From the IMG/VR virus record IMGVR_UViG_3300033145_000269, positions 1-12,559 of that record: a DNA stretch of 12,559 nucleotides, one strand, 5' to 3'. Each line of letters begins with the position of its first letter. Within the stretch, counting starts at the first letter, position 1. The notes below the pieces were generated by a model. It made no database searches and had not been told where the DNA came from. It saw only the letters and a list, made by a program, of their open reading frames with translations. This DNA is from a virus. Shown here one piece after another: positions 1-12,559 of this stretch. The position numbers and the translations under genes were made by a program.

Positions 1-114
1 AAGGTTAATTGCATGTTCTGGTGCATCTGACTTATTAGCACTCAATTTAAGCCTTAAAGCATCATTTGTTAATTTAGATATATTGATTGATTTAAGTTGA
101 GCATCTTTTAACTG
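1..114. repeat. Terminal direct repeat, left copy (identical to 12446..12559)
   Basis: Bases 1-114 (aaggttaattgcatg...gcatcttttaactg) recur base-for-base at 12446-12559. The repeat is bounded exactly by the window edges, as expected for overlapping contig ends of a circular or circularly permuted genome. Confidence 0.97.
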
Positions 115-150: not shown

Positions 151-171
151 ATATAATCATATATACTCTTA

Positions 172-179
172 TATATAAA
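172..179 (-). promoter_or_regulatory. TATA-like box (TTTATATA on - strand) for the leftward operon; putative leaderless transcript
   Basis: Plus-strand tatataaa at 172-179 is TTTATATA on the minus strand. Its centre lies about 26 nt upstream of the ATG at 150, and there is no GGAGG-like element in between. Confidence 0.45.
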
Positions 180-192
180 TATATAGGTTCTC

Positions 193-215
193 TAATACCT
201 ACATTTCCAGTGGAA
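193..215 (+). repeat. Copy A of a ~22-bp motif (taatacctacatttccagtggaa) containing the palindrome TTCCA-G-TGGAA
   Basis: The core cctacatttccagtggaa (198-215) matches cctgcatttctagtggaa (745-762) at 16/18 positions. It matches the reverse complement of 778-795 (cctatatttcaagtggaa) at 16/18. Confidence 0.8.
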
Positions 216-223
216 AACATATT

Positions 224-273
224 GAAAGAAAGAAAGAACCAAAGAAAGAAAGGGAGTGCATATATATATATGG
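224..273. repeat. Purine tract of (GAAA)n-like repeats followed by alternating (AT)n
   Basis: The sequence gaaagaaagaaagaaccaaagaaagaaagggag is followed by tgcatatatatatatgg. This is strand-asymmetric low complexity followed by an easily melted AT run. Confidence 0.8.
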
Positions 274-545
274 GGTGTTAGTAGTAGTTATCAATCTGTG
301 GCAAATCATACTCTACCAGTCCAATAATCAAATCACCTATACAGGCAAGTACCATCATATTATCTTGGCTATTAATATATCTGTAGATCAATTAGTATAT
401 AATAACTCATGACTATCCAAGCGAAGTAACATAGATATAAATACATCTTCTTTCTTATTTATATATCACCTCTTTTAGCAGGGTGGAGTGGATAACAGAA
501 ACTTCAGAAAACAGAAACTAAGCTCTATCTTGTTTTTTATGTACC

Positions 546-661
546 ATATATTGATAAGCTCGCTCATGCCATATCTTTATATAGATTGAAGTATTTAGAA
601 AGTTGCTCTTTCTATTCATTGGTTCTACATTAAGCTCGCTATCGCTCGCTTATCAATATAT
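546..661. repeat. Perfect 14-bp inverted repeat (atatattgataagc / gcttatcaatatat) flanking an ~88-bp spacer
   Basis: The arm at 546-559 is the exact reverse complement of 648-661. The spacer contains TTTATATA (576-583), and taagctcgct occurs twice (556-565 and 631-640). Confidence 0.85.
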
Positions 662-740
662 CTAAGGGTTTTTAGGTCCATACAGCTAGCCTTTTCATTA
701 GCCTCCCTTTCTTGATCTATTCCGACCAATTCCCCCCCTC

Positions 741-800
741 TTAACCTGCATTTCTAGTGGAAGTAGCAACCAAACCATTCCACTTGAAATATAGGTTAAT
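741..800. repeat. 60-bp imperfect palindrome formed by motif copies B (741-762, +) and C (778-800, -)
   Basis: The reverse complement of ttaacctgcatttctagtggaa is ttccactagaaatgcaggttaa, versus the observed right arm ttccacttgaaatataggttaa (19/22 identical). The spacer is the 15 nt gtagcaaccaaacca. Confidence 0.8.
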
Positions 801-977
801 TCACCCCTCCTTGGCCTCCCTGTATTGTTTGCTTCTTTAATGTGTGAGCGTAGCGAACTGTTAGTTATCCTCCTCACCGAATAACTGTATACTATGCTAA
901 CCTAAGTATACACTAGAAGTTAGCGAGAGTTATTGTCCCTTAGTAGTAGTGCTGTTGTTCTTCCCGCCACCGCTAAT

Positions 978-985
978 TTTATAAA
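978..985 (+). promoter_or_regulatory. TATA-like box (TTTATAAA) for the rightward packaging/structural operon
   Basis: The centre of the box is about 26 nt upstream of the ATG at 1007. The sequence in between (atataatattctaataatata) has no SD-like element. Confidence 0.4.
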
Positions 986-1006
986 ATATAATATTCTAAT
1001 AATATA

Positions 1007-1096
1007 ATGTCTTACGAAATACTATACCTTGATCTCTTAGCCACATTAGGAATACTCATAAAGCTATATCAACTAAAGAAAGAGGGAAAGCTATGA
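1007..1096 (+). CDS. Hypothetical 29-aa hydrophobic peptide (MSYEILYLDLLATLGILIKLYQLKKEGKL)
   Basis: The ATG sits at the predicted leaderless start. Its TGA stop overlaps the terminase ATG (ATGA at 1093-1096). The ORF is very short, so the call is weak. Confidence 0.3.
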   Translation: MSYEILYLDLLATLGILIKLYQLKKEGKL

Positions 1097-2430
1097 TCCT
1101 TAACCTAGATGACTGGCAAATAGAGGCTTTAGAGCACAAAGGCGACCTTTTACTCTGTACTGGTCGAAGAATCGGCAAAACATACATTATGGCAAAGAAA
1201 GCAGTTGATAGAATGAGATATAAGACAAATACTCAAATTGTTGTTGTTTCTCTTACCGCAGATCAAGCCGAACTAATAATAGAGTTCGCAAGAGAGATAA
1301 TCCAAGCAGAATGTCCCAGAGAAATCTCAAAGAAACATACAGATACTAATAAAACCAAAATAACATTTAAGAACAAATCTAAATTAATGGCTCGACCTGT
1401 TGGGAACACCGGAGATGCAGTACGAGGTTTCACAGGTGATGTTCTTATAGTAGATGAGGCCTCAAGAATGCCCCCTTTGATGTGGATGGCAGCTAAACCT
1501 ATTCTATTAATGACAGGTGGAGAGATATGGATGTGCTCAACTCCTGCGGGAAAAGAGGGCTATTTCTGGAAACAATATGATAAAGCATACAATAAGAAAG
1601 ATCCAGAGGCTAGATTTAAGGTTATTTATAAAACATCTGAAGATGTAGTGTATAATAGGCCTTTATCCTCTACTTGGACGGAATCACAGCGTGCAGGGGC
1701 AATAAGGAACTTAGAAGAGGAAAAGAAAGACATGTCAGAGCTAGAATACGGCCAGGAGTACTTAGGACTCTTTATGGAAGACTTAAAGAGGTTATTTGAT
1801 GAGAAATGGATAACAAACTGCGCAGTCCTGGAGAAAAGCCAATCTCAAGCCTCACAATTAGGTACCTACTTCATGGGTTGTGATATTGCGCGTCTTGGAA
1901 AGGATGCAGGAACTTTTGAGATATTTAAGAAAACAGAGAATTTAATATTACATTTAGATAACTTTGTCACAAGAAAGAAACTAACAACTGAAACTCATGA
2001 TAATATTATTAGGTTAAACAAACTTTGGAATTTTAAGAAGATTGGTATAGATGCCGGATCGGGGGCCTTAGGTGTTGGAGTCCTAGATTGGCTACTCCGA
2101 TCCGAAGTAAAGCGGAAAGTAATAGCCCTAAACAACCAACAAGTGGCCCTAGACCGTGAAGGAAAGAAGAAAAGAGCATTATTGAAAGAAGATGGTTATA
2201 TGTTGGTCCTAAGTCTTGGAGAAAGGGGAATACTCAAGCTTCTCAAATCAGACGACGTTATTAACTCTCTTAGATCAGTTCAATACGAAATAGTTAGAGA
2301 AAAGGGAGCACAAGCAAGGTTTAGAGTCTTCTCAAGCCCACATTCAGAGTCGCATATCATGGAGGGAGTATGGAGAGGGGTATATTTAGCAAATAGCAAA
2401 AATATAAATACCAACATTAGCTACTTTTAG
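1093..2430 (+). CDS. terL: Terminase large subunit (ATPase plus RNase H-like nuclease)
   Basis: Motifs present: Walker A CTGRRIGKT (aa 22-30), Walker B VLIVDEA (aa 117-123), coupling motif CSTP (aa 148-151) and LEYGQEYLGLF. The C-terminal nuclease acidic motifs are MGCDIARLGKD and IGIDAGSG. Length and N-terminal DWQ...GKT layout are typical of TerL. Confidence 0.9.
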   Translation: MILNLDDWQIEALEHKGDLLLCTGRRIGKTYIMAKKAVDRMRYKTNTQIVVVSLTADQAELIIEFAREIIQAECPREISKKHTDTNKTKITFKNKSKLMARPVGNTGDAVRGFTGDVLIVDEASRMPPLMWMAAKPILLMTGGEIWMCSTPAGKEGYFWKQYDKAYNKKDPEARFKVIYKTSEDVVYNRPLSSTWTESQRAGAIRNLEEEKKDMSELEYGQEYLGLFMEDLKRLFDEKWITNCAVLEKSQSQASQLGTYFMGCDIARLGKDAGTFEIFKKTENLILHLDNFVTRKKLTTETHDNIIRLNKLWNFKKIGIDAGSGALGVGVLDWLLRSEVKRKVIALNNQQVALDREGKKKRALLKEDGYMLVLSLGERGILKLLKSDDVINSLRSVQYEIVREKGAQARFRVFSSPHSESHIMEGVWRGVYLANSKNINTNISYF

Positions 2431-2432
2431 AT

Positions 2433-2573
2433 ATGGTAGTAGAACCCCTATTAGAATTAATAAAGAAACTGAAACTAAGATTTCCAAATAAATCAGACGA
2501 AGTTATCTTAGAATTAATAAAGATAAAGACACTTATGGATATAAGTGGTAAGCTTGGGATGTTGAAAAGATGA
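2433..2573 (+). CDS. Hypothetical 46-aa protein (not in ORF track)
   Basis: MVVEPLLELIKKLKLRFPNKSDEVILELIKIKTLMDISGKLGMLKR. It starts 3 nt after the terL stop, and its TGA overlaps the next ATG (ATGA at 2570-2573). It contains a 15-nt internal direct repeat, ttagaattaataaag, which encodes LELIK twice. Confidence 0.4.
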   Translation: MVVEPLLELIKKLKLRFPNKSDEVILELIKIKTLMDISGKLGMLKR

Positions 2574-2959
2574 CATGGACACTTTGCACCTCTGGCGCTG
2601 CAATAGATAAAGCAGGAACTCACGCTAATTCTACTATCATTGATTATGGTACTGCAGCATCTAAAGTTACCCTAGATAAGTGGTCTGATGAGTTTGAGGG
2701 GGCGATAGAATTACAATCTGGCAAAGCCTTTATTACAGATATAGGTAATGCACCTGGAGGAATAGCTAATGGTATATCAAACGTAGTATCTTCTTGGATA
2801 GCTATGCAGATTGCGAGTTATGATCCCACAGGTTATTCTTCAAGAGAGTTTAACTCCTTAATGAACTTCCACAACGATATAGTCCAGAAAGGAATAGCAG
2901 AATTAAAAAGATGGTCCTCAACAACGTTGAATAACCCATTTACAACAGGAAGCCCTTAA
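2570..2959 (+). CDS. Hypothetical protein, 129 aa (possible virion or connector component by position only)
   Basis: Long ORF in the operon frame chain, abutting the next gene (stop 2959, ATG 2960). No family recognised. Confidence 0.6.
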   Translation: MTWTLCTSGAAIDKAGTHANSTIIDYGTAASKVTLDKWSDEFEGAIELQSGKAFITDIGNAPGGIANGISNVVSSWIAMQIASYDPTGYSSREFNSLMNFHNDIVQKGIAELKRWSSTTLNNPFTTGSP

Positions 2960-3529
2960 ATGACATTACCACCCCAAGCATACACCTCTCAAGATGCGGC
3001 AGTTGCTAGTTATCCCGCTGCGGATTTAATAAATGGATTAAGTGATGTTATTTATAATTTGGTGAAAGTTCAGAACCCCGGATCATCAACTAATCTTAAA
3101 ATAGTCAGTTCAGATATGTCTGGTCAATTCGTAGCAGCCAATGGTTATAACTCTACAGCTAATGATGCTTTTGATTTAGGGCCTTTTCAAACTACAAGAA
3201 TAATAGATGGCTTTGTTTCTCTTTGGGGTCAACAGAATGGTACATCTGGAACTCCAACAATGACAGCTCAACTCTTTCATGTAGAATCAGATGGAACAAC
3301 AGAAACACAGCTAGGGGCTGATGGCTCTAGTGGTTCTACTACTTCAGATATAGCTTATAATATAACTTTCACAGTACCTAGAACTCAATTTAAAGTTGGA
3401 GAGTTCCTAAGAGTAAAGATTGATATGTCTGACGGAACTTTATATATTTCTATAGACCCAACAGAAATAAGCCCTGCATCAATAGCACATACAAGATTAA
3501 CCGTTCAATACGAGGTGGACTTAGTATAA
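2960..3529 (+). CDS. Hypothetical protein, 189 aa, Ser/Thr/Gly-rich and probably beta-rich (possible structural protein)
   Basis: ORF directly abuts its neighbours, and its stop overlaps the portal ATG (TAATG at 3527-3531). No family recognised. Confidence 0.6.
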   Translation: MTLPPQAYTSQDAAVASYPAADLINGLSDVIYNLVKVQNPGSSTNLKIVSSDMSGQFVAANGYNSTANDAFDLGPFQTTRIIDGFVSLWGQQNGTSGTPTMTAQLFHVESDGTTETQLGADGSSGSTTSDIAYNITFTVPRTQFKVGEFLRVKIDMSDGTLYISIDPTEISPASIAHTRLTVQYEVDLV

Positions 3530-4611
3530 TGGATCGTGATATGAGAAGTGCACAAGTCGGAACATCTACATCTACAGACTTTGAAGTGGATACAGCTAAC
3601 CAAGATGGCTTAACAGATCAGCCAGTAACAACCTTTGAGTATACAGACTTCCCACAATGGCAGAACTACTATGAAACTACTGCCGAAGCAAAAAAGCCTA
3701 TTCAGACTTATGCTACATGGGTTGTTGGCCAGGGTTATACAACTCAAACAGCAAAAGATGAAGCAACATTAAACAATATAAGGGGATGGGGTGAGGATGA
3801 TATAACTTCAATATTATGGAATATGCTTGTAGTTAAGAAGTTCAACGGAGACTCTTTTGCTAAGATTGTTAGAAACGATAAAGGTACTTTAATTAACATT
3901 CTTCCTCTAACTCCCTCAAGAATGAAAACAGATGTAAGGAGTAGCGGAACAATCAAACAATATAGGTATCTCTCTCCAGATCGTAATTCTGTAGAACAGA
4001 CATTCAAGCCAGAAGAAATATTCCATTTATGTAACGATCGTATTCTTGATAACGGAAAGGGAGACTCTGTTATAGAAACTCTTAAATGGTATATTGATGC
4101 TAAATGGGAAGCCATGAAAGACGTTCGTAGAGTATCACATAATTCTAGTATTAGAATCATATATGTCGACGAGGATAACATAGGTAAGATAACAGACTTA
4201 GAAACCAAATGGGCTAAAGGTATAGCTACAGGTAATGTTATGCTTATGCCTGGAAAGAAAGGAGTAGATTATGAGGTTGAAGATATAACCGTTCCTGCTC
4301 TTGATGCCTGGATGTTGTGGATAAAGTATTTAGAGAACTCTATATATAAGGCGGTAGGAGTACCTAAGACTCTTGCAGGTGACGCCGAGGGTATACCAGA
4401 GTCTGGTGGTAAGATGGTAGTATTCACACATCAACCAACATATATTAGAGAAGTTACAGTTCTTGAAAATGATTTCAAAAGACAGATAGGTATAGAGATT
4501 AAGTTTAATAGGCAAGAAGACTTATCTAATGATGTTCAAGAAACAGACTCAAAGAATACTAATCAAACACAGGCTACACAGCCAGGAGATACAAATGCGG
4601 GTACGGTTTAA
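3529..4611 (+). CDS. Portal protein (HK97-family-like, compact 360 aa)
   Basis: The central region FNGDSFAKIVRNDKGTLINILPLTPSRM...YRYLSP...EEIFHLCNDRILDNGKGDSVIETL follows the pattern I associate with Phage_portal (PF04860-type) proteins. The C-terminal tail is acidic and polar. The gene lies in the packaging module upstream of the head genes. Confidence 0.7.
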   Translation: MDRDMRSAQVGTSTSTDFEVDTANQDGLTDQPVTTFEYTDFPQWQNYYETTAEAKKPIQTYATWVVGQGYTTQTAKDEATLNNIRGWGEDDITSILWNMLVVKKFNGDSFAKIVRNDKGTLINILPLTPSRMKTDVRSSGTIKQYRYLSPDRNSVEQTFKPEEIFHLCNDRILDNGKGDSVIETLKWYIDAKWEAMKDVRRVSHNSSIRIIYVDEDNIGKITDLETKWAKGIATGNVMLMPGKKGVDYEVEDITVPALDAWMLWIKYLENSIYKAVGVPKTLAGDAEGIPESGGKMVVFTHQPTYIREVTVLENDFKRQIGIEIKFNRQEDLSNDVQETDSKNTNQTQATQPGDTNAGTV

Positions 4612-4626
4612 ATTAAACTTTAAGAT

Positions 4627-4809
4627 ATGGGGTTATACCATATACTTAACAATAAGAAAATGAAAAGATTAACATTAGGAGAAAGACTAGCAAAGGTTGA
4701 AGTTAGAATCAAATATGTAGAGAGAGGTATGTATGTTCTTATAGTATTACAATTAGGGGTTGATGCTATTCCTAAAGTCTTGCCTTATGTAATGGGGGTA
4801 TTGTTCTAA
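4627..4809 (+). CDS. Small protein with a C-terminal hydrophobic helix (60 aa, or 49 aa from the ATG at 4660)
   Basis: KRLTLGERLAKVEVRIKYVERG is followed by the hydrophobic MYVLIVLQLGVDAIPKVLPYVMGVLF. The stop overlaps the next ATG (TAATG at 4807-4811). Start choice is uncertain. Confidence 0.5.
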   Translation: MGLYHILNNKKMKRLTLGERLAKVEVRIKYVERGMYVLIVLQLGVDAIPKVLPYVMGVLF

Positions 4810-5804
4810 TGGTTATCCTAAATACTATAAAGAAGAAGAAAAAGAAAGAAGTAGAGCAAAGAGATAAAAGGAAAACTGTAGAGGGTGAAGTTACAACCAC
4901 CCCCGACTTCAAAGCTCCAGATGTTACAACAGTTCCAAAGAAGTTTAATATTAATGGTAAGCAAGTTACAGAAGAAGAATTCAAAGCAGCTCAATCAGAC
5001 TTTCAAGCTCAAAAAGGAGAGGCACAGATTATAGCCGCAGGTGGCGTGGGCCCACAAGAGAGGGAGGCTAAAGCAGAAGAATTAGCTAGGAAAGAGGAAG
5101 GTGCTCAAATATTACAAGAGGGGGGGTTTGATCCTTTAGCTCAAGCAGAGAGAACCCAGTTAGATATAGACCCTAAAACTGGACAAGGTATACCAGTTAT
5201 AGGTCCTGGTCAAGCTGCACTTCAAGGAGTTATAGGTGACTTTGTTAGAGGATCTATATTTGAGGGTGATGCTGCTAAGATGGAGCCTTTAATACAGGAC
5301 CCAGAAACTGCTAGAGAAGTTGCATTACAAGCTATTCAACAAGATGTTATAAATGAGGGTATCTCTGCAGGCGAGGCTTTCGGTGCTCTTGTTGAGAGTA
5401 TACCTCTTGTTGGTTCTTTAGCTAATAAGTATGCTCAAGGATTAATAGAAAATCCAAAAGGAAATATACAAACTATTACAACTCAAATAGCCTCTGAAAG
5501 AGAGAGGGCATCGGTATTAGCTGAAAAGATGCTAACAGGTAAGATGAACCCTATAACTGGTTTAGCGGAGATAGATAATATTGAGGAGAATATAGTAGGA
5601 TTAGAACAGAGAATAGTGGTTCTTGCTAATACTAGTGCCGCATTAAGAGCCGACGCTGATGCTATCAATTTAATAGAAGAACAAATACTAAGAGCTAAAG
5701 AGAGAGTTATAATCGCAAGAAATGCAGCAGCAGGAGGCTTTGCTGTTACCCCGTCAGATGCTAGCCTTGTTTTAGAATTGGAGAAAATAAATGAAAAATC
5801 TTAA
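4809..5804 (+). CDS. Charged, Ala/Glu/Gly-rich, predicted helical protein, 331 aa (scaffold-like or internal virion protein; function unknown)
   Basis: N-terminal lysine run (KKKKKKE), then long helical and coiled-coil-looking segments (EREAKAEELARKEEGAQ, ENIVGLEQRIVVLANTSAALRADADAINLIEEQILRAKERV). It lies between the portal and capsid genes. Confidence 0.6.
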   Translation: MVILNTIKKKKKKEVEQRDKRKTVEGEVTTTPDFKAPDVTTVPKKFNINGKQVTEEEFKAAQSDFQAQKGEAQIIAAGGVGPQEREAKAEELARKEEGAQILQEGGFDPLAQAERTQLDIDPKTGQGIPVIGPGQAALQGVIGDFVRGSIFEGDAAKMEPLIQDPETAREVALQAIQQDVINEGISAGEAFGALVESIPLVGSLANKYAQGLIENPKGNIQTITTQIASERERASVLAEKMLTGKMNPITGLAEIDNIEENIVGLEQRIVVLANTSAALRADADAINLIEEQILRAKERVIIARNAAAGGFAVTPSDASLVLELEKINEKS

Positions 5805-5887
5805 AGACCTTTATGTCTATGTATTCTGGCTATTTGTATTCTGGCCTGCTACGTTCTTCTTACATAGGTGAAAGGAGGTAAATTATA

Positions 5888-6175
5888 ATGGATGAAAAAC
5901 AAACAAAAAAGGAAACTGAACCGAAAGCTCCAGTTGCAAATACTGACAACGGGGATGAGCCCAAAGAGCTTACTGAGAGTCAGAAACTCAAAGCAGAGAA
6001 CGATAGAATGGAAAAGCTCTTAGTTGAACAGAAAGACTTTAGTGCTCAAGAGCAGTTAGCAGGTAGAGGTACAGCAGGTCAAGCACCAATTCCTAAAGCC
6101 CCAGAAACTGATGAGGAGTATGCCGAGCGTTTTCAAAAAGGCCAAGTTGATTTAATGAAGACAGATGATCAGTAA
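5888..6175 (+). CDS. Small acidic helical protein, 95 aa; candidate scaffolding protein
   Basis: Strong SD (aaaggaggtaaattataATG). The composition (ELTESQKLKAENDRMEKLLVEQKD) and position upstream of the capsid gene resemble phage scaffold proteins. The capsid protein has no N-terminal delta-like extension. Confidence 0.55.
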   Translation: MDEKQTKKETEPKAPVANTDNGDEPKELTESQKLKAENDRMEKLLVEQKDFSAQEQLAGRGTAGQAPIPKAPETDEEYAERFQKGQVDLMKTDDQ

Positions 6176-6344
6176 AGCAATTCTAAAAGAAGAAATTAAG
6201 AAGACTAAGGAAGCTATCAAGGCTATTGAAGCTATGTCTGTTAAATCTAATAAACAGAATCTACAGATACAAGAGGATTGTGGAGTCGGTTTACAGGTTA
6301 ACAGATTAGTTTTAGGTTATTTGGAAACCGAATTAAAGAAGTAA
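6165..6344 (+). CDS. Hypothetical 59-aa helical protein (not in ORF track)
   Basis: MISKAILKEEIKKTKEAIKAIEAMSVKSNKQNLQIQEDCGVGLQVNRLVLGYLETELKK. It overlaps the upstream gene by 11 nt, and its stop overlaps the next ATG (TAATG at 6342-6346). It fills a gap that would otherwise be non-coding. Confidence 0.5.
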   Translation: MISKAILKEEIKKTKEAIKAIEAMSVKSNKQNLQIQEDCGVGLQVNRLVLGYLETELKK

Positions 6345-6760
6345 TGACAGCTATATGGTTCATAACTAGAGGAATTAAAGACAGAGTGGATGCTCTAGTT
6401 AATGACTTACAAGCTCAAGTCTTCACCTTTAATGTAAAGAATAAGAAGACTAAGAAAGTAGAAACTCATTACGTTCAAGGTGCTTTAAGACCTGTTCAAT
6501 TGTGGGAGTATGTAGTTCCAGATGAGCACGTTCCGACTATGGTTAAAACCTTAGATTTGACAATAAATGGCTATCCAAAGTATAAAAAGTATTTAACGAT
6601 ACTTAGGAAGATGTTGAAATTAGATAAGATTAAAGAACCATCTAAAGATACGCCAAGAAGAATTTTAAGGAAAGATCACGTCGCTATGCATGTTATTGGA
6701 GTTAAGAAAGATGCTATCGGAACAACCTTAGACCCCAATATTGAGCACGAATTACTTTAG
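6344..6760 (+). CDS. Hypothetical basic protein, 138 aa
   Basis: ORF in the coupled chain. No family recognised. Confidence 0.6.
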   Translation: MTAIWFITRGIKDRVDALVNDLQAQVFTFNVKNKKTKKVETHYVQGALRPVQLWEYVVPDEHVPTMVKTLDLTINGYPKYKKYLTILRKMLKLDKIKEPSKDTPRRILRKDHVAMHVIGVKKDAIGTTLDPNIEHELL

Positions 6761-6787
6761 TTAATCGGTATACCGAATAACGAAAGA

Positions 6788-6795
6788 TTTATATA
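6788..6795 (+). promoter_or_regulatory. TATA-like box (TTTATATA) with a purine-rich upstream flank (cgaaaga), driving the decoration/capsid genes
   Basis: It lies in the 57-bp intergenic gap. The box centre is about 26 nt upstream of the ATG at 6818. The T-rich sequence in between has no SD. Confidence 0.5.
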
Positions 6796-6817
6796 TATTG
6801 TTTTTTATTATTTATTT

Positions 6818-7213
6818 ATGGCAAACGAAGCAACCCAAGTTGAGGGCCCATACGAGGCTCATGATTTTGAAGTAGTTGATGCAACAGCAGTTGAACAATA
6901 TACTTTAATGGGAATGTCAGATGCTCGTCACGCTTATGCTAGTTCTGGAGCTGATGACTTCGCAGGGATTGCAGCAACTGAAAAAACAGCTTCTAATGGT
7001 CAAACTCAATTAGGTCTATTTACCACAGGTACATTCCTTTTAACTGCCGCATCTGGTGCTGCAATAAGTGCAGGTGAATTGGTATCTCTATCTGGAGCTA
7101 ATTTCGTTAAAACAGCTACTGAAGCAGAAGTTGTAACTGGTCATGTTGTGGGTAAAGCCCTGGAAGATATAGCAGCAACAACCACAGGCGAAGTAAAGTT
7201 GGTGGTTAATTAA
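6818..7213 (+). CDS. Head decoration/cement-like protein (DUF2190-like), 131 aa
   Basis: FAGIAATEKTASNGQTQLGLFTTGTFLLTAASGAAISAGELVSLSG...VVGKALEDIAATTTGEVKLVV follows the two-lobed G..V...G.A...G..v.V pattern of DUF2190 proteins. Those proteins are commonly encoded immediately upstream of HK97-type capsid genes. The stop overlaps the capsid ATG. Confidence 0.55.
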   Translation: MANEATQVEGPYEAHDFEVVDATAVEQYTLMGMSDARHAYASSGADDFAGIAATEKTASNGQTQLGLFTTGTFLLTAASGAAISAGELVSLSGANFVKTATEAEVVTGHVVGKALEDIAATTTGEVKLVVN

Positions 7214-8070
7214 TGGCAGATAGACCAGGCCAAGCAGACGTAAGAGGAGAAAACATTTCTAAGGTCGTAACAGTATTAGCTCAAAAGAAATTCAGATTAA
7301 TGCCTTTACTTAAACAATTGACTTCTAGTGATATTACAGAAACTTATTACGAAGAGGATGCAACAATCCTAACAGCTGCAGGAACTAGAAACATTAAAGG
7401 TATTGGTAAATTCTCAGAGTTCCCTAGTGTAAACAGGTCTTGGGTTAAAACAAGTTCAGATCATCAAAAGTATGGTGCTGAAAGTTATATATCTATAGAA
7501 GACTTAAGACTAGGAGCTTTCAATATGCAAGCTAGAACAGTTGATGGTATAGCAGAGTCTATAACAAATGCAATAGACGAAGCAATCTACGCAGCTTTAA
7601 CAGCAGCTACAGGTACAAGTGGAGTAGTAGCAGCAGTGGCTACATGGGATAATGCAACAGCTTCAACCCAGAACCCAGTTAATGATATTCTTAGAGGAAT
7701 CCAAGCTATGGATGAGAACAACTACGATGCTTTAGAGAATGGTTTCCTATTGCTTAACCCTCATGACTATGCCTCCTTAATGCAGAACTCTAAGGTTATT
7801 AATAATCCATCATTTAAGACTGCTGATGTGGTAAGTAATGGGAGAGTAGGACAGATAGCAGGTCTTACAATAGTAAAGACTACAAGTGTTACAGATGCAG
7901 AAGCTATGATAATTATAGGTCAGAAGACAGCTCAATGGCAAAGTGCTATGGGCTTTGAGAGTGCTGTAACTGTTAAACCTGGTAAAGGTTCTATCTTTAC
8001 ATCCTGGCAAATGGGTCAAATACAAATCATACATAAAAAGGCTATCTATACGATAACGGGGACTGAATAA
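7213..8070 (+). CDS. Major capsid protein, HK97-fold, 285 aa
   Basis: KYGAESYISIEDLRLGAFNMQARTVDGIAESITNAIDEAIYAALT, then NGFLLLNPHDYASLMQ and GRVGQIAGLTIVKTTSV, match the conserved layout of HK97-family (PF05065-like) capsid proteins. The position after the scaffold and decoration genes also fits. Confidence 0.75.
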   Translation: MADRPGQADVRGENISKVVTVLAQKKFRLMPLLKQLTSSDITETYYEEDATILTAAGTRNIKGIGKFSEFPSVNRSWVKTSSDHQKYGAESYISIEDLRLGAFNMQARTVDGIAESITNAIDEAIYAALTAATGTSGVVAAVATWDNATASTQNPVNDILRGIQAMDENNYDALENGFLLLNPHDYASLMQNSKVINNPSFKTADVVSNGRVGQIAGLTIVKTTSVTDAEAMIIIGQKTAQWQSAMGFESAVTVKPGKGSIFTSWQMGQIQIIHKKAIYTITGTE

Positions 8071-8240
8071 TGGTAAACTATCAAGCTCAAGTTCTAAGAG
8101 GAGAGAAGTGGTTTCACTTAATGTCTGAAGAAGATATAGCTAAAGCAGGTGGAAGTATACCTGGAGATGTTAAAGTATATCTTGAATCTAAAGCTAAAGT
8201 AGTTGCAGAGAAAGAATCTAATTCTAAGAGGAAGAAATAA
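8070..8240 (+). CDS. Hypothetical 56-aa protein (not in ORF track)
   Basis: MVNYQAQVLRGEKWFHLMSEEDIAKAGGSIPGDVKVYLESKAKVVAEKESNSKRKK. There are TAATG stop/start overlaps at both ends (8068-8072 and 8238-8242). Confidence 0.5.
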   Translation: MVNYQAQVLRGEKWFHLMSEEDIAKAGGSIPGDVKVYLESKAKVVAEKESNSKRKK

Positions 8241-8398
8241 TGGTAGATTTAATTGGTGACAATTGCGAACCTAGTGATCTTGTTGTACCTGCAAAAGCTG
8301 TAGGTAAGGATCAGACAGGAGCAGTTATATTATCTGGTGCTAAGCTATGGGTTAATGTTGATGGTGCTGCAGGTTGGCAAGTTGTGACTTCTAGTTAA
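8240..8398 (+). CDS. Hypothetical 52-aa protein (not in ORF track)
   Basis: MVDLIGDNCEPSDLVVPAKAVGKDQTGAVILSGAKLWVNVDGAAGWQVVTSS. SD-like agaggaag lies upstream, and the start overlaps the preceding stop. Confidence 0.5.
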   Translation: MVDLIGDNCEPSDLVVPAKAVGKDQTGAVILSGAKLWVNVDGAAGWQVVTSS

Positions 8399-8407
8399 TT
8401 ATTTAAA
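8399..8407 (+). promoter_or_regulatory. A/T box (TTATTTAAA) upstream of the fibre gene
   Basis: The centre is about 26 nt upstream of the ATG at 8429. The intervening cttctttttctaatttattct lacks an SD. The match to TTTATATA is weaker than for the other three boxes. Confidence 0.35.
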
Positions 8408-8428
8408 CTTCTTTTTCTAATTTATTCT

Positions 8429-11038
8429 ATGGGTATTAATGATAGACTTATCAAAGCACGTACTGCAAAGAAACCAGACACTTCCGGCTTTCATAGACCA
8501 GAGGGTGCAGGTAACTTTGACAATATGGATGATATGAATATTGTTAATCAAGTTAATACACTCACTGGAAAAGTTGAACACATACCAACAGATAACAAAC
8601 ACATAGTAAACAAAGAATATGCTGATAGACATGACCCTTTCTGGAATGGATCGTTTAAAGAAACCTTTGATGCCTTAGTGACTTCTAATGGGACCATTGT
8701 AACTATGACTCTGACTAATGCAGATAGTGGTAACTTAACTATGCAGTTCTCAACTGGAGAGAGTACCCTATCTATGCCAGATACAATAGCTTTAACCGTT
8801 GGAAGTGATGCTAGCCCTCAAGCTAATTATATCTATATTCCTCTTAGTACAAAGGTCTTAACAAAGTCTACTTCTAACTGGCCCAATGAAGAACATATTA
8901 AGATAGGATATTTCTTAATCCAATCTGCCTCTGGTGTACAATCAGATGATGGATGTTATATCAATCAAAACTGGAACGATCATTTAGCAGGTACTAATGA
9001 TATGGGCCATGCTCAACATCTAGCAGAGGCTCTAAGACGTAGGAGTGCTAGGTATTTCTCTGGTATAGATGGGAATGGAACTGATAACTATTTAACTCCA
9101 ACAGCATCTAATGTAGAGTTTAAGTCTACGGCCGGAGTTGTATACCAACTGCACCAACATACTTTCCCTGCTGTTGATACAAGCACAAGTTCAGATGTTC
9201 ATGTTAAGAATTGGAATGGTGATTCTTTCCATCAGATAACAAATCTATTTGACATAGTGAATGATAGCACAGGTTCAGCTATATCTAATAACAAATATTT
9301 TAATTTAGTTTTCTGGGGTGTTGCTAACAAGACAGGTGAGCATGATATTATAATGGTGAACTTACCTAGTGGTTCTTATAATACTCAAGCAGGTGCAGAG
9401 TCTGACACTTCGGGCTTTGATGATTTCTCTATGCCAAGAGAATTTAATTTTGAAAGTTCTACTGGTTTCTTATTATCTCGTATGACAATACAAATGGGTA
9501 CAACATGGAGTGTGGCATCTTCTGTAGACCTTAGAGGACAGAGTCCAACTACAGCATCTGGGGGTGCATCTTCAGTAGCCACCGAGTTTCCAGATAATAC
9601 TTTCAGGATATTTGATGAGGCTGATCCAACTAAGGAGTTAGCTTTAAGTGTTGGTGGTATATCAGCGTCGACAACTAGAACTATAACTGTTCCAGATGAG
9701 AGTGGAACAATACCTTTAAAGACTGGTACTCCAATTAGTGGACAAATGGCTTCGTGGTCAAGTGAAACAACATTACAGCCAGAGGCTGAAATAACTTATG
9801 ATGGCTCTATTTTTCAAGTTGCTAATACTGCAGCAGCTGAAAGTGGGATGAGATTAAAATCTATATCTGGACAGCAAGCAGTTCTTTACTTAGATAATAC
9901 TACTGATATTTGGGCCATGTATGCGCCTGCCAGTTCTAATGATTTAAGATTTTGGAATGGTTCTGATCTGATGACTATAGACTCATCGGGAAATGTTGGA
10001 ATTGGGACGGCAAGCCCCAACACAGCTAAACTTCATGTAATAGGATCACCAACACAAATTAATTTTAATGATGCGGTAGATAAGGGTGGTTTCTTAGTTT
10101 CTTTAAATGATGACCAAGCTATAGTATCTGCAGGTGCATATTTTGATGGTGGTAATTGGAAAGCCACAGACACAACAGTTTCACAGATTGAAATGGTAGA
10201 TGGACAAATAAGATTCAGATATAAAACTGGACTTACTGCGGGGGACACTGTTAGTTGGTCTGATTCTATGAGAATTTTATCAGATGGTAAGGTTGGAATT
10301 GGAACTGTTAGCCCCTCTGCAAGATTTCATGTTAAATCTACTGGAGCAACATCACAGACATTCGGATTGTTTGAAGATAGTGCAGGAACAGATGCAGTTA
10401 AAATGTGGTCTGATGTAAACGGAGATAGTTTAATTAGTATCTACGACACAAGCGGGAATGAAGATGTTAGATTATATAGTGCAGGAAATTCTTGGTTTAG
10501 AGATACTAATCTTGGTTTGGGTACAACTGCTCCCGCTGAAAAATTAGAAATTGAGGGCGGTAACTTAAAGATGGAGAGTACCAACGACGGAAACAATGGA
10601 CTTATAAGATTTTATGATGCTAATGATGTAGAGAGCGGACAGGTTTATGCTAGTGCTAGTGATTTAAGATTGTTTAGTGCTAATGATATTATTATGACTG
10701 CTGATACTGTAGATGTAGTTGGGGCAATAGCTTCTGGGACCACAACAATAAGCGCAAGCTCTGATGCTGTAGACGTAACAGGAGTAAACACAATCTTTGT
10801 AAATACTGGATCGGGAGATGTGACTATAGGTGGTTTTACTGGTGGGATAGATGGTCAAGTAGTTCATATAATCAAAGCCCCAGACTCATCTAATAATATG
10901 ATCTTAGAATATAATGAGGCAGCAGGTACTGAAAAATTATTAAATCATGCACAAGTAGACTTAACATTTGATAAATTAGGTGGTGCTACTTATGTCTTCG
11001 GTGTTCAGTCCAAATGGTGGCAAGTAGACGGACCTTAG
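8429..11038 (+). CDS. Fibre/spike-like receptor-binding candidate, 869 aa
   Basis: It is the largest ORF and the last gene of the structural module. The C-terminal half carries three copies of the motif G-x-[VL]-G-[IL]-G-T-x-x-P-x-x-[KR]-[LF]-[HE]-[VI]: GNVGIGTASPNTAKLHV, GKVGIGTVSPSARFHV and NLGLGTTAPAEKLEI. I associate that motif with phage tail-fibre-domain proteins. Confidence 0.65.
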   Translation: MGINDRLIKARTAKKPDTSGFHRPEGAGNFDNMDDMNIVNQVNTLTGKVEHIPTDNKHIVNKEYADRHDPFWNGSFKETFDALVTSNGTIVTMTLTNADSGNLTMQFSTGESTLSMPDTIALTVGSDASPQANYIYIPLSTKVLTKSTSNWPNEEHIKIGYFLIQSASGVQSDDGCYINQNWNDHLAGTNDMGHAQHLAEALRRRSARYFSGIDGNGTDNYLTPTASNVEFKSTAGVVYQLHQHTFPAVDTSTSSDVHVKNWNGDSFHQITNLFDIVNDSTGSAISNNKYFNLVFWGVANKTGEHDIIMVNLPSGSYNTQAGAESDTSGFDDFSMPREFNFESSTGFLLSRMTIQMGTTWSVASSVDLRGQSPTTASGGASSVATEFPDNTFRIFDEADPTKELALSVGGISASTTRTITVPDESGTIPLKTGTPISGQMASWSSETTLQPEAEITYDGSIFQVANTAAAESGMRLKSISGQQAVLYLDNTTDIWAMYAPASSNDLRFWNGSDLMTIDSSGNVGIGTASPNTAKLHVIGSPTQINFNDAVDKGGFLVSLNDDQAIVSAGAYFDGGNWKATDTTVSQIEMVDGQIRFRYKTGLTAGDTVSWSDSMRILSDGKVGIGTVSPSARFHVKSTGATSQTFGLFEDSAGTDAVKMWSDVNGDSLISIYDTSGNEDVRLYSAGNSWFRDTNLGLGTTAPAEKLEIEGGNLKMESTNDGNNGLIRFYDANDVESGQVYASASDLRLFSANDIIMTADTVDVVGAIASGTTTISASSDAVDVTGVNTIFVNTGSGDVTIGGFTGGIDGQVVHIIKAPDSSNNMILEYNEAAGTEKLLNHAQVDLTFDKLGGATYVFGVQSKWWQVDGP

Positions 11039-11086: not shown

Positions 11087-11386
11087 TTATTCTGCTAGTT
11101 CTACAGAGTATCTTGTAGCTAAACCTGTTCCAGTGCTAGTTACTTTAACAAACTTCATTTCTGGCTTAAGCTTCAACATCTTTTGAATTTCTTCAAGAAC
11201 TGTATTAGCTATTCTGAAATCGTTTGTACCAATAACAACAGCTTTATATGAGAAAGGCTTATCTTTCTTATCAATTCCCTCTCGATCTTCAACTGGTAAA
11301 CTCAAATCAAGCCTATCTAAATCTGTTACGTTAAGCGTTTTCTTAGGTTCGTAAGCTTCAGCTTCTTGTTTTAGTGTTTTTTGCAT
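11087..11386 (-). CDS. Hypothetical protein, 99 aa
   Basis: Strong SD (aaaggaggtaaagataataATG). It is the last gene of the leftward operon. No family recognised with confidence. Confidence 0.65.
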   Translation of the reverse strand: MQKTLKQEAEAYEPKKTLNVTDLDRLDLSLPVEDREGIDKKDKPFSYKAVVIGTNDFRIANTVLEEIQKMLKLKPEMKFVKVTSTGTGLATRYSVELAE

Positions 11387-11822
11387 TATTATCTTTACCT
11401 CCTTTTGGAATTATATTATGATCATTCACACTATGCTCGATGTGCGGATCTTTCTCCCTACATGTCTTACAATATATTTTAGCCTTATAGGCATCATAAT
11501 ATTGACCACAATTCCAACCTGCAGTTTTATCATCCCAACACAAAAGATTATGTATAAACTTACCACAACCCTTCGCACTATCTGTATTATCTGAACCCCT
11601 AAGGGTGTCAGAGGAGCAATCCTCTGACTTGTCATGTGCCTGTATACTAGGGTGACTATGATTTGATGGTTTGAATTCTTCACACAACCAATCTAAGAAT
11701 ATTTGACCTCTTTCCTGTACTTTTCTACCACTTATGTATATTGGATGAAATATCTCATAGTATCCACAGTTCGCACAAGATGGGTTGTCTGAACTCGTTG
11801 TATATCTTTCTATATTACTCAT
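11358..11822 (-). CDS. Cys/His-rich protein, 154 aa (zinc-binding; function unknown)
   Basis: CANCGYYEIFHP near the N-terminus, then CGKFIHNLLCWDDKTAGWNCG and CKTCREKDPHIEH. There are nine Cys including two CxxC pairs. SD ggggaggat lies upstream, and the start overlaps the upstream stop (ATGA). Confidence 0.7.
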   Translation of the reverse strand: MSNIERYTTSSDNPSCANCGYYEIFHPIYISGRKVQERGQIFLDWLCEEFKPSNHSHPSIQAHDKSEDCSSDTLRGSDNTDSAKGCGKFIHNLLCWDDKTAGWNCGQYYDAYKAKIYCKTCREKDPHIEHSVNDHNIIPKGGKDNNAKNTKTRS

Positions 11823-12025
11823 ATTAAATCCTCCCCTGCGAGTTTGTCAATTCTATTATGTATTGTAGCTATATCTTGGTAGAAATCACAATTATCTTCA
11901 ATTACAGGAATCCCCCTAAGTTCTTCTTTCAACTCTTTGATGAATTTCTTTACATGCCTTTTTCTAATAACATCTTCTTGAAGTTTTGTTTCTCCATACA
12001 TATCTATTTTATCGCTTAAACTCAT
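11819..12025 (-). CDS. Hypothetical helical protein, 68 aa
   Basis: ORF in the coupled chain, with ATGA overlaps at both ends. No family recognised. Confidence 0.6.
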   Translation of the reverse strand: MSLSDKIDMYGETKLQEDVIRKRHVKKFIKELKEELRGIPVIEDNCDFYQDIATIHNRIDKLAGEDLI

Positions 12026-12132
12026 TCTAATTCTCCAATCTTATTTATTAATCTAAGCATTACTCTTTCAAAATGGCCTGTTAGTATCTTTATCTGTTCA
12101 TTCATATATGTTTCGTATTCTCCTCTAGTCAT
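12022..12132 (-). CDS. Hypothetical 36-aa protein (not in ORF track)
   Basis: MTRGEYETYMNEQIKILTGHFERVMLRLINKIGELE. ATGA overlaps occur at both ends (12129-12132 and 12022-12025), with SD-like ggagag upstream. Confidence 0.4.
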   Translation of the reverse strand: MTRGEYETYMNEQIKILTGHFERVMLRLINKIGELE

Positions 12133-12257
12133 ATTCTCTCCATGACATTTCTAGTCTTACCACATTTATGACAATAAGCAACTTTGGGGTTTCTAAATCT
12201 AAGTGAGAAAACCCATAAATCCTCCTTATGTCCACATTTTAATTTATAGAGACTCAT
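12129..12257 (-). CDS. 42-aa zinc-ribbon-like protein (not in ORF track)
   Basis: MSLYKLKCGHKEDLWVFSLRFRNPKVAYCHKCGKTRNVMERI carries C-x-H and C-x2-C pairs 18 residues apart. Its ATG overlaps the upstream stop (ATGA at 12254-12257), with SD-like tggag upstream. Confidence 0.5.
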   Translation of the reverse strand: MSLYKLKCGHKEDLWVFSLRFRNPKVAYCHKCGKTRNVMERI

Positions 12258-12559
12258 TCTCGAACTCCATTGAAGCTAGGTATTCTGATGTGCTCGTGTA
12301 GGCCTTGTGATCCTTTACTATCTCTGATCTCGTCATGAGGGTGCATATTCATATTACATATCTCTTGACATTTCTCACAATAGAATTTGTCTAGTTCTTT
12401 ACACATATAGCCAAATTCGCACTCAGACTTACACACATCGCATTTAAGGTTAATTGCATGTTCTGGTGCATCTGACTTATTAGCACTCAATTTAAGCCTT
12501 AAAGCATCATTTGTTAATTTAGATATATTGATTGATTTAAGTTGAGCATCTTTTAACTG
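12254..12559 (-). CDS. C-terminal part of the RHH plus B-box-like zinc-finger protein (113 aa once the genome is circularised; start is the ATG at 150)
   Basis: The frame is open from 12559 down to the TGA at 12254-12256. The segment 12446-12559 duplicates 1-114. The C-terminal half reads CDVCKSECEFGYMCKELDKFYCEKCQEICNMNMHPH. The track's start at 12490 is a TTG, not an ATG. Confidence 0.7.
   Translation of the reverse strand, partial: QLKDAQLKSINISKLTNDALRLKLSANKSDAPEHAINLKCDVCKSECEFGYMCKELDKFYCEKCQEICNMNMHPHDEIRDSKGSQGLHEHIRIPSFNGVRE
12446..12559. repeat. Terminal direct repeat, right copy (identical to 1..114)
   Basis: Exact 114/114 identity with the window start. Confidence 0.97.

Follow-up and report, generated by a model that had tools for sequence, protein, structure and literature searches.

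Deposited archaeal tailed viruses are several times larger than the genome described here: a set of new isolates has genomes of 35–105 kbp, with a single short-tailed family among them (PMC8651126). The smallest cultivated tailed phages, represented by Salmonella phage astrithr, have genomes of 11.6 kb (10.1101/2025.06.18.659913). Here, we analyzed the IMG/VR virus record IMGVR_UViG_3300033145_000269, a stretch of 12,559 nucleotides (nt) that is referred to below, at its full length, as the window, and that encodes a large terminase subunit (TerL), a portal protein, and an HK97-type major capsid protein. We consider it probable that this is the complete genome of an autonomous miniature virus of the HK97 lineage (Caudoviricetes type) that infects archaea and belongs to a large uncultivated family. 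Among terminase/portal viruses linked to archaea to date, the members of this family are the smallest by a wide margin.

Several described systems invite comparison. Archaeal tailed viruses such as Halogranum tailed virus 1 and the short-tailed Shortaselviridae likewise combine an HK97-type capsid protein, a portal, and TerL with an archaeal promoter architecture; the family described here differs from them in its size (10.2–12.8 kb) and in having no recognizable tail, small terminase (TerS), protease, or replication genes. The phi29-like phages rely on a virus-encoded family-B polymerase and a packaging RNA. Together with astrithr, they are similar in genome size, and their virion module, likewise minimal, includes a portal and a packaging ATPase, whereas the genomes studied here have no polymerase or terminal protein and no structured RNA, and carry a classical ATPase-nuclease TerL and archaeal origin recognition box (ORB)-like sequences. 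Replication of the phi29-like phages is protein-primed, and their packaging process is characteristic (PMC11476376). Satellites of the capsid-forming phage-inducible chromosomal island (cf-PICI), Staphylococcus aureus pathogenicity island (SaPI), and P4 types likewise measure 10–15 kb, with their own small HK97 capsid and packaging functions and no recognized tail genes; however, they are integrated, integrase-bearing, and helper-dependent, whereas the present genomes are extrachromosomal, mostly integrase-free, and equipped with diverse fibers of their own. Among the “twilight-zone” mini HK97 genomes of Aguilar et al. (2025), the highlighted clade has encapsulin-like capsids and lysogeny genes and no portal or tail genes (10.1101/2025.06.18.659913). 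Those genomes are likewise metagenomic, closed by direct terminal repeats, near or below the 11.6-kb limit, and provided with HK97-fold proteins; the present genomes additionally encode a portal, TerL, and fibers, and most of them would land in the “control” size class of that study (11.6–20 kb). No published description of the family was found in the full-text literature, with most subscription journals lying outside the search.

A Closed Genome Built around One Head-Packaging Module

The first and last 114 bases of the window are identical, and the unit genome is therefore 12,445 bp.

1..114, no strand: terminal direct repeat, copy at 12446-12559; mark of a closed genome, from a circular or concatemeric template

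The span from 1007 to 11038, in which every gene lies on the plus strand, makes up 80.6% of this unit. This agrees with the original prediction, made from the sequence of the window alone, that about 80 percent of the genome is one head-packaging module. Coordinate 1007 is the ATG of a 29-amino acid (aa) hydrophobic open reading frame (ORF) that overlaps the TerL start, and five small genes run leftward from 150, over the junction of the circle, to 11087. A nucleotide search with 8 kb of the genome against 50,697 deposited phage and archaeal-virus records gave no match, and no tRNA gene was called in the window or in 24 relatives, save one doubtful call in L083. We regard it as almost certain that the window is a complete closed genome and that it belongs to a large family, which is described below.

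A Family of Miniature Genomes

This genome is no isolated curiosity; its family has well over a thousand members. More than 880 TerL homologs with 45–70% identity were found, and for almost every one the longest contig measures 11–12.8 kb; homologs of c129, a 129-aa protein encoded downstream of TerL, number 1,483, Tara Oceans sequences included. From the 313 relatives in IMG/VR, 101 were fetched (L001–L101). Tara Oceans samples, a groundwater co-assembly, and numerous further metagenomes contributed family contigs, and the family is abundant in viral-fraction collections. Six relatives self-close at 11,324–12,415 bp with repeats of 55–127 nt, and a Tara Oceans contig of 15,648 bp (L127, scaffold_917) contains a 10,245-bp unit exactly 1.5 times. 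Family genomes range from about 10.2 to 12.8 kb. The unit of this marine contig is smaller than the 11.6-kb genomes of the smallest cultivated tailed phages; its largest ORF after the capsid gene has 153 aa, and it thus lacks a large fiber.

After ORFs had been called in all loci and clustered, the gene order was read from 25 near-complete genomes. The order was fixed: variable small genes, TerL, c129, c189, portal, an ORF of about 55 aa, c331, c95, c138, cement protein, capsid protein, small ORFs, and one or more fibers. No non-structural ORF in the near-complete genomes exceeds about 250 aa. In L024, a closed relative of 12,415 bp, a very short tyrosine recombinase was observed (215 aa, L024:8254-8898; Phage_integrase, 1e-17); thus, a minority of the family may integrate.

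Four contigs larger than a unit genome were examined as possible signs of a bigger virus, and all were concatemers or chimeras. In addition to the 1.5-mer, a 21.4-kb IMG/VR contig consists of two different family genomes in tandem, and contigs of 20.5 and 33.5 kb hold two copies of the module each, with no recognizable host or tail gene in the stretches read. The 33.5-kb contig (NODE_625) joins two family genomes head to head across a non-coding region, and its second TerL gene is split by an HNH/NUMOD3 homing-endonuclease gene (L122:207-2014). Among 185,579 bacterial and archaeal genomes, one per species, close relatives occurred only on contigs of at most 11.8 kb, whereas distant TerL relatives (24–34% identity) do occur in long chromosomal contigs. 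A metagenome scan revealed no near-identical copy inside a larger contig.

Archaeal Promoters and the Host

An archaeal promoter consists of a purine-rich transcription factor B recognition element (BRE) followed by a TATA box centered about 26 nt upstream of the start. When the 60 nt upstream of the cement gene were aligned from about 65 loci, a conserved RAAAGWTTTAAATAG was found to end about 22 nt before the ATG, without a Shine-Dalgarno sequence. This BRE/TATA element precedes 52 of 69 cement genes, with a purine-rich BRE directly upstream of the TATA box in about 60 cement-gene promoters. Over all loci, TTTAWATA starts exactly 29 or 30 nt before a called start codon in 94 of its 480 occurrences, as against 0–6 occurrences at each of the other distances, and this constant distance implies leaderless transcripts. 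For the window, transcription is accordingly predicted to begin at the ATGs at 150 (minus strand), 1007, and 6818 or no more than 1–2 nt away. Internal genes have GGAGG-type ribosome sites. Neither sigma-70 promoters (37 found, 42 expected) nor intrinsic terminators (4 found, 6 expected) were enriched. In the window, boxes of the BRE/TATA type precede the ATGs at 150 (minus strand), 1007, 2433, and 6818; the three that head an operon are as follows.

172..179, minus strand: TATA box TTTATATA for the early leftward operon; distance to the ATG at 150, 29 nt (leaderless arrangement)
978..985, plus strand: TATA box TTTATAAA for the late operon; distance to the ATG at 1007, 29 nt; forms the 3' end of a conserved non-coding block
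6782..6795, plus strand: BRE and TATA box GAAAGATTTATATA for the cement/capsid operon; distance from the first base of the TATA box to the ATG at 6818, 30 nt; Shine-Dalgarno site absent

Two further observations bear on the host. A Holliday-junction resolvase of the Hjc type was found in 16 relatives (PDB 1gef, E 2.7e-5), for example, at L046:10084-10344 and L052:2527-2787. Among the 50,697 deposited records, the best isolate matches of TerL were to Halogranum tailed virus 1 (26% identity, E 1e-19) and then to Methanobacterium virus PhiF1. Because of the BRE/TATA spacing, the Hjc genes of the relatives, and the TerL matches to archaeal viruses, the host is very likely an archaeon. The suspicion of an archaeal host voiced in the original prediction is thus supported on these three counts, and also by the ORB-like boxes described below. 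The 86-aa Hjc-type resolvase is the commonest recognizable early gene of the family and does not occur in the window.

A Candidate Replication Origin of the Host Type

Cellular archaeal origins lie in AT-rich intergenic regions that contain several boxes, some of them inverted, matching TTCCAGTGGAAA...AGG(GG)T. The intergenic region of the window is likewise AT-rich, and it carries one distal box and an inverted pair; it differs from cellular origins in that no orc1/cdc6 gene is adjacent, the G-string is shortened to AGGT, and the replicon is a virus of 12 kb.

151..1006, no strand: non-coding control region from which the early operon diverges leftward and the late operon rightward; putative origin and regulatory/packaging sites
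197..215, plus strand: ORB-like box 1, ACCTACATTTCCAGTGGAA; read as its reverse complement, TTCCACTGGAAATGTAGGT, it corresponds to the archaeal ORB
744..762, plus strand: ORB-like box 2, ACCTGCATTTCTAGTGGAA, left half of the inverted pair, with a C-run in front
778..796, minus strand: ORB-like box 3, right half of the inverted pair

Three such boxes were found in the window, compared with 0.01 expected from shuffled sequences. Their cores are identical to the published ORB consensus CTTCCAGTGGAAACGAAAGGGGT (PMC4153887), and TTCCACTGGAAATGTAGGT also matches the common motif TCCA[CG]T[TG]GAAA[TC][GA]AAGGGGT of Ori-Finder 2 (PMC4164010). An AT-rich element is present beside the boxes: the GC content is 0.30 over positions 1–500 and 0.37 in the whole genome, and runs of AT repeats occur at 155–185 and 255–275. 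The region of 860 nt has stops in all six frames and no ORF longer than 59 aa, which excludes a hidden gene.

The boxes are a feature of the family. Within 1.2 kb upstream of TerL, 43 boxes were found in 73 kb, compared with 12 in the other 576 kb, a 28-fold enrichment. Their layout recurs across the family: relative to TerL, an inverted pair lies between −300 and −350, and a distal box between −800 and −1000; the inverted pair 300–350 nt before TerL is also present in L028, L036, L040, L044, L077, and L090. In about 35 loci, an iterated nhmmer profile identified a conserved non-coding block, which in every case lay shortly before TerL; the consensus of this block contains the ORB pair, two palindromes, and the late promoter. 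The 860-nt region is a mosaic of DNA motifs whose order varies. A structured RNA, such as a packaging RNA of the phi29 kind, was ruled out, because the region had no match in Rfam at E values up to 1 and the consensus fold of the conserved block reached only −0.78 kcal/mol with 3 pairs in RNAalifold.

Judging from these motifs, we think it somewhat more likely than not that the ORB region is an origin of the Orc1/Cdc6 type, fired by the initiator and the replisome of the host. Replication by the host at this region would account for the missing replication genes. A survey of Thermococcales viruses recorded no classical ORB sequences in its dataset (PMC12934983), and a virus family based on ORBs would therefore be unusual.

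Functions Missing from the Genome

In Pfam and PHROGs searches, no ORF of the window matched a polymerase, primase, helicase, Rep, integrase, TerS, tube, sheath, baseplate, endolysin, or holin. The absence of all of these had been claimed in the original prediction, and for the window the profile searches bear it out. No small terminase or protease was recognizable. We scanned 128 representatives of accessory proteins (at least 95 aa) from 101 related loci with Pfam, and no polymerase, primase, helicase, or Rep was found among them; therefore, we regard the absence of replication genes as a property of the family. The other functions missing from the window were likewise missing from these representatives, with one integrase (in L024) as the exception. 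The accessory proteins that did have Pfam matches contained receptor-binding modules, namely, lectin, beta-helix, Gp10_C, and depolymerase domains. In addition to the integrase, Dam, HNH, SNase, RusA, and CcdA were encountered as single cases, together with one archaeal Fn3 domain. Cluster 63, considered as a tail-collar protein, had no support from Pfam.

Two small membrane proteins are encoded between c138 and the cement gene in some relatives. One has about 96 aa and two hydrophobic helices (cluster 20: L020, L024, L025, L037, L047, L067, and L071), and the other has about 85 aa and an N-terminal helix (cluster 26: L037, L056, L067, L069, L074, and L078). Both are candidate egress proteins, and neither occurs in the window.

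Packaging, Capsid, and Fiber Genes

The genes that the original prediction had named, TerL, portal, the DUF2190-like decoration protein, the HK97 capsid protein, and the 869-aa fiber, are all backed by Pfam or PHROG profile matches. The rightward module reads as follows.

1007..1096, plus strand: 29-aa single-helix hydrophobic peptide, MSYEILYLDLLATLGILIKLYQLKKEGKL; homologous peptides lie elsewhere in L039, L082, L083, and L096
1093..2430, plus strand: TerL, large terminase subunit (packaging ATPase-nuclease), 445 aa; Terminase_6N 1.8e-10, PHROG terminase large subunit 3e-34
2433..2573, plus strand: 46-aa ORF with a TATA-like box 30 nt upstream; no family assigned from ORF calls and profile searches
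2570..2959, plus strand: c129, all-alpha 129-aa protein of the virion module, candidate neck/adaptor protein; found in 91 loci
2960..3529, plus strand: c189, single jelly-roll (C1q/TNF-like) beta-sandwich, candidate receptor-binding/tail-tip protein; AlphaFold2 (AF2) predicted local distance difference test score (pLDDT) 80
3529..4611, plus strand: portal protein, 360 aa; PF04860 1.2e-12, over the gathering score, PHROG portal 1e-11
4627..4809, plus strand: 60-aa ORF with a hydrophobic C-terminus; most relatives have a small ORF here
4809..5804, plus strand: c331, 331 aa, Lys-rich N-terminus followed by a Gly/Ala/Glu-rich helical part; conserved in size, very divergent in sequence
5888..6175, plus strand: c95, candidate scaffolding protein, 95 aa, highly charged; its gene has a strong Shine-Dalgarno site
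6165..6344, plus strand: 59-aa ORF, no family assigned
6344..6760, plus strand: c138, conserved 138-aa protein; in 49 loci
6818..7213, plus strand: cement/decoration protein (DUF2190, Phage_cement_2); PF09956 2.4e-6
7213..8070, plus strand: HK97-type major capsid protein, 285 aa, without a delta domain; PF25209 1e-11, PF05065 8.6e-5, PHROG major head protein 5e-18
8070..8398, plus strand: two small ORFs (56 and 52 aa), kept in close relatives
8429..11038, plus strand: fiber protein, 869 aa; PHROG tail fiber 2e-10

Close homologs of TerL also match the nuclease domain Terminase_6C, and the profile matches of the capsid protein assign it to the HK97 fold. The proteins around the portal were less readily classified. 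The AF2 model of c129, based on an alignment of 82 sequences, is a bundle of three long helices (pLDDT 77); it had no structural neighbor in Foldseek, and the protein had no Pfam or PDB match. With a best Foldseek E value of only 0.6, its assignment as a head-tail adaptor is unsupported. The model of c189 resembles C1q/TNF-like knobs, fiber tips, and viral jelly-roll proteins (Foldseek against PDB and BFVD; E about 1e-5, template modeling score 0.4–0.6), and as a generic jelly roll it gave no support to a tube or nozzle function. The slot between c129 and the portal is occupied by c189 in 67 loci and elsewhere by beta-helix proteins (NosD/Beta_helix), fiber-like proteins, or SNase. This exchange of protein types among relatives suggests that the slot is a receptor-binding position. 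For c138, searches of PDB, Pfam, and PHROGs were without a match. Profiles of c129, c189, and c138 found nothing among PDB sequences, and scans of their individual members against Pfam and PHROGs gave no recurring family.

The protein c331 is a candidate scaffold or internal/ejection (tape-measure-like) protein. Among its 45 homologs, weak PHROG matches were obtained to tape-measure proteins (5), tail-associated lysins (3), and endolysins (2). The statement in the original prediction that nothing resembles a tape measure was therefore slightly too strong.

A conserved virion anchor joined to variable receptor-binding parts is the usual pattern of fiber proteins. The 869-aa fiber has a conserved N-terminal anchor, a variable middle part, and a C-terminal half with fiber repeats (internal repeats D3 and D17). 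Only residues 6–66 are common to the fibers of close relatives, and the last 120 or so residues are shared with a few others.

The single-helix peptide of about 30 aa (…LATLGIxxKxYQLWKEGK…) that precedes TerL in the window occurs at shifting positions in the relatives (L082, about 8753; L083, about 2631; L039, about 7984; L096, about 12187), as if it were a mobile micro-gene.

Early Genes, Palindromes, and Regulation

The leftward genes were arranged as follows.

12254..12559, minus strand: 3' part of the first early gene, which starts at the ATG at 150, spans the circle junction, and encodes 113 aa in total
11087..12257, minus strand: further early genes, encoding proteins of 99 aa (family cluster 25), 154 aa (Cys-rich singleton), 68 aa, and 42 aa (zinc ribbon); function unassigned

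The first of these had been listed as a minus-strand ORF at 12254–12490, which we corrected to the true start, the ATG at 150. Its 113-aa product has an N-terminal ribbon-helix-helix (RHH) domain (CcdA/RHH PF07362, E 1.1e-5; score, 26.1 bits; cut-off, 22.4) joined to a Cys-rich zinc domain, has homologs in 12 loci, and, on the basis of these domains, is a putative transcription regulator. The 154-aa protein (11358–11822, minus strand) contains about 14 cysteines in CxxC-type pairs and is a singleton among the 101 fetched loci. For this protein and for the 99-aa protein, PDB and Pfam searches gave no assignment.

A palindrome of 22 bp, AGTTATTCGGTnnACCGAATAACT, is found throughout the family. 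In the window, it occurs at 861–885, in the origin block, and at the cement promoter.

6755..6786, no strand: palindrome CTTTAGTTAATCGGTATACCGAATAACGAAAG, family-wide 22-bp operator-like element beside the cement promoter

In the relatives (L001–L101), the palindrome lies upstream of the cement BRE/TATA element or between the TATA box and the ATG, and also upstream of TerL. It is probably an operator, and we would guess that the RHH protein binds it. A second conserved palindrome, TGCACTAAGGTnACCTTAGTGCA, lies at 897–921 of the window and is shared with L023, L028, L030, L038, L039, L045, and L056 (alignment A11, columns 340–372); a short AGCGAGAGTTG / CCGATAGTTG motif is also located between the ORB pair and the late promoter. 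Either of these could be a packaging site or another operator; we would expect the packaging site at 800–975, in the conserved block.

Autonomous Virus or Dependent Element

We propose the following course for the replication of the virus. The AT-rich intergenic region would offer the distal ORB and the inverted pair of boxes to the host Orc1/Cdc6 protein, which would bind them and load the host MCM helicase and replisome, so that no viral replication protein would be needed. A leaderless early operon would be transcribed leftward from the intergenic region, beginning with the gene of the RHH-zinc regulator, and the late operon rightward, with an additional strong BRE/TATA promoter, flanked by the palindromic operator, before the cement and capsid genes. 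TerL would cut the replicated DNA and package it through the portal into a small HK97 capsid, for which we estimate a diameter of about 45 nm by analogy with P4 (11.6 kb, T=4). At the portal vertex, c129, the jelly-roll protein c189, and fibers docking through their N-terminal anchor would provide both the closure and the means of attachment. The resulting particle would be very short-tailed or nearly tailless.

The original prediction had left two readings open, a reduced podovirus-like virus replicated by host machinery and a capsid-forming satellite. The former is favored by the ORBs, the lack of any replication gene, the archaeal promoters, and the virus's own fibers; its “podovirus-like” part is an inference, as c129 and c189 revealed no tail. 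The satellite alternative is weakened by the fibers, the origin, and the near-absence of integrase. According to this alternative, the element would provide its own small capsid and packaging machinery and take tails, and perhaps replication, from a larger helper, as do the cf-PICIs. It could explain why Pfam, PHROG, and PDB-profile searches and AF2/Foldseek detected no tube, nozzle, sheath, tape measure, or baseplate and why replication genes are absent, and the genome size is within the known range of satellites (10.1101/2025.06.18.659913). However, satellites that hijack tails take the fibers of their helper, whereas these genomes have fibers with a conserved anchor and a swappable receptor-binding slot. 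Integrase is present in only 1 of about 25 near-complete genomes, the 185,579 species genomes contain no copy in a chromosomal contig, the origin is of the host type and is the element's own, and no helper-sensing or interference genes were recognized. We therefore judge a satellite unlikely. As the genome encodes two adsorption proteins, the fiber and the protein of the c189 slot, we favor an autonomous, short-tailed or tailless particle, and autonomy as such is likely.

A small phage of ultra-small bacteria (Patescibacteria, also known as the candidate phyla radiation [CPR]) or of other bacteria is suggested by the low GC content (31–44%) and by relatives that were binned into bacterial metagenome-assembled genomes (MAGs), with the labels Levyibacteriota, “Patescibacteria group,” Saccharibacteria, Izemoplasmatales, Muribaculaceae, and Bacteroides. 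These labels carry little weight because they disagree with one another and because the contigs, none longer than 11.8 kb, consist of complete or incomplete virus genomes that lack host genes, and host assignment by MAG label was rejected as unreliable. BRE/TATA elements fixed at −29/−30 before starts that lack a Shine-Dalgarno site, archaeal ORB boxes, the archaeal Hjc resolvase of the relatives, and best isolate matches to archaeal viruses also disagree with a bacterial host, as does the lack of enrichment of bacterial promoters and terminators. We thus hold a bacterial phage to be improbable.

It is slightly less probable again that the genome is mainly a plasmid-like carrier-state element, that is, an episome replicated by Orc1/Cdc6, kept in step with the cell cycle, and producing capsids only occasionally. 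The host-type ORB origin, the RHH/CcdA-like first early gene, the lack of a recognized lysis gene, and the absence of integrase from most members would fit such an episome. However, virion genes with strong promoters fill 80% of the genome, genes for partition or copy control were not recognized, and the family is abundant in viral-fraction collections. The carrier state overlaps with our preferred explanation, an autonomous virus replicated by its host, and the two are not mutually exclusive.

We give very little credence to a fragment, an excised piece, or a mis-assembly of a larger virus or prophage. A few relatives do lie on contigs of 15.6, 20.5, 21.4, and 33.5 kb, but the first is a 1.5-mer, the 21.4-kb contig is made of tandem genomes, and the other two hold two module copies. 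Seven independent genomes self-close at 11.3–12.4 kb, hundreds of contigs end at 11–12.8 kb or below, and no near-identical sequence was present in larger metagenome contigs. With relatives closing at 10.2–12.8 kb, larger contigs that are concatemers or chimeras, and none that is chromosomal, the excised prophage fragment considered in the original prediction found no support. A gene transfer agent, which is chromosomal and does not package its own genes, was ruled out by the self-closing 12.4-kb replicon and by circles and concatemers in many samples.

Several findings weigh against an autonomous archaeal virus replicated by its host. No adaptor, nozzle, tube, or stopper was recognized by Pfam, PHROG, and PDB profiles, or by AF2/Foldseek for c129 and c189. 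The MAG bins of the relatives are mostly bacterial (Patescibacteria, three; Bacteroidales, two; and Izemoplasmatales), with one in Methanomicrobia, and no link to any archaeon was obtained through CRISPR spacers or proviruses. At the stringency used, ORB boxes were detected in 25 of the 72 loci with enough upstream sequence; the other loci may use diverged boxes. An orc1/cdc6 gene was found neither in the window nor among the 128 accessory representatives, and the origin, unlike cellular ones, has none beside it, as would be expected if the host protein is used. The binding of Orc1/Cdc6 is deduced from sequence identity, and a viral protein could use the same sites.

Implications for Archaeal Virus Biology

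If the genomes are those of autonomous archaeal viruses, the lower size limit of archaeal head-tailed viruses would drop about three-fold from the 35–105 kbp of the isolates (PMC8651126), and the “missing small tailed viruses” would gain a large natural family with portal and terminase. We advance only tentatively the wider claim that these are the smallest autonomous portal/terminase viruses known (10.2–12.8 kb) and the first miniature archaeal lineage of the Caudoviricetes type, in which a copy of the ORB replaces the replication genes and fibers and a jelly-roll protein are docked at the portal vertex without a conventional tail. Mimicry of the host origin by ORB boxes would be a testable route by which a terminase virus could do without replication genes, and it would predict a dependence on Orc1/Cdc6 and possibly a replication coupled to the cell cycle. 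The ten-gene virion module, with c129, c138, and c331, which have no recognizable relatives, and the jelly-roll protein c189, would provide a compact system for the minimal closure of a portal and for DNA delivery through the archaeal envelope. The family is widespread and may thus have been missed so far as a component of archaeal virus ecology.

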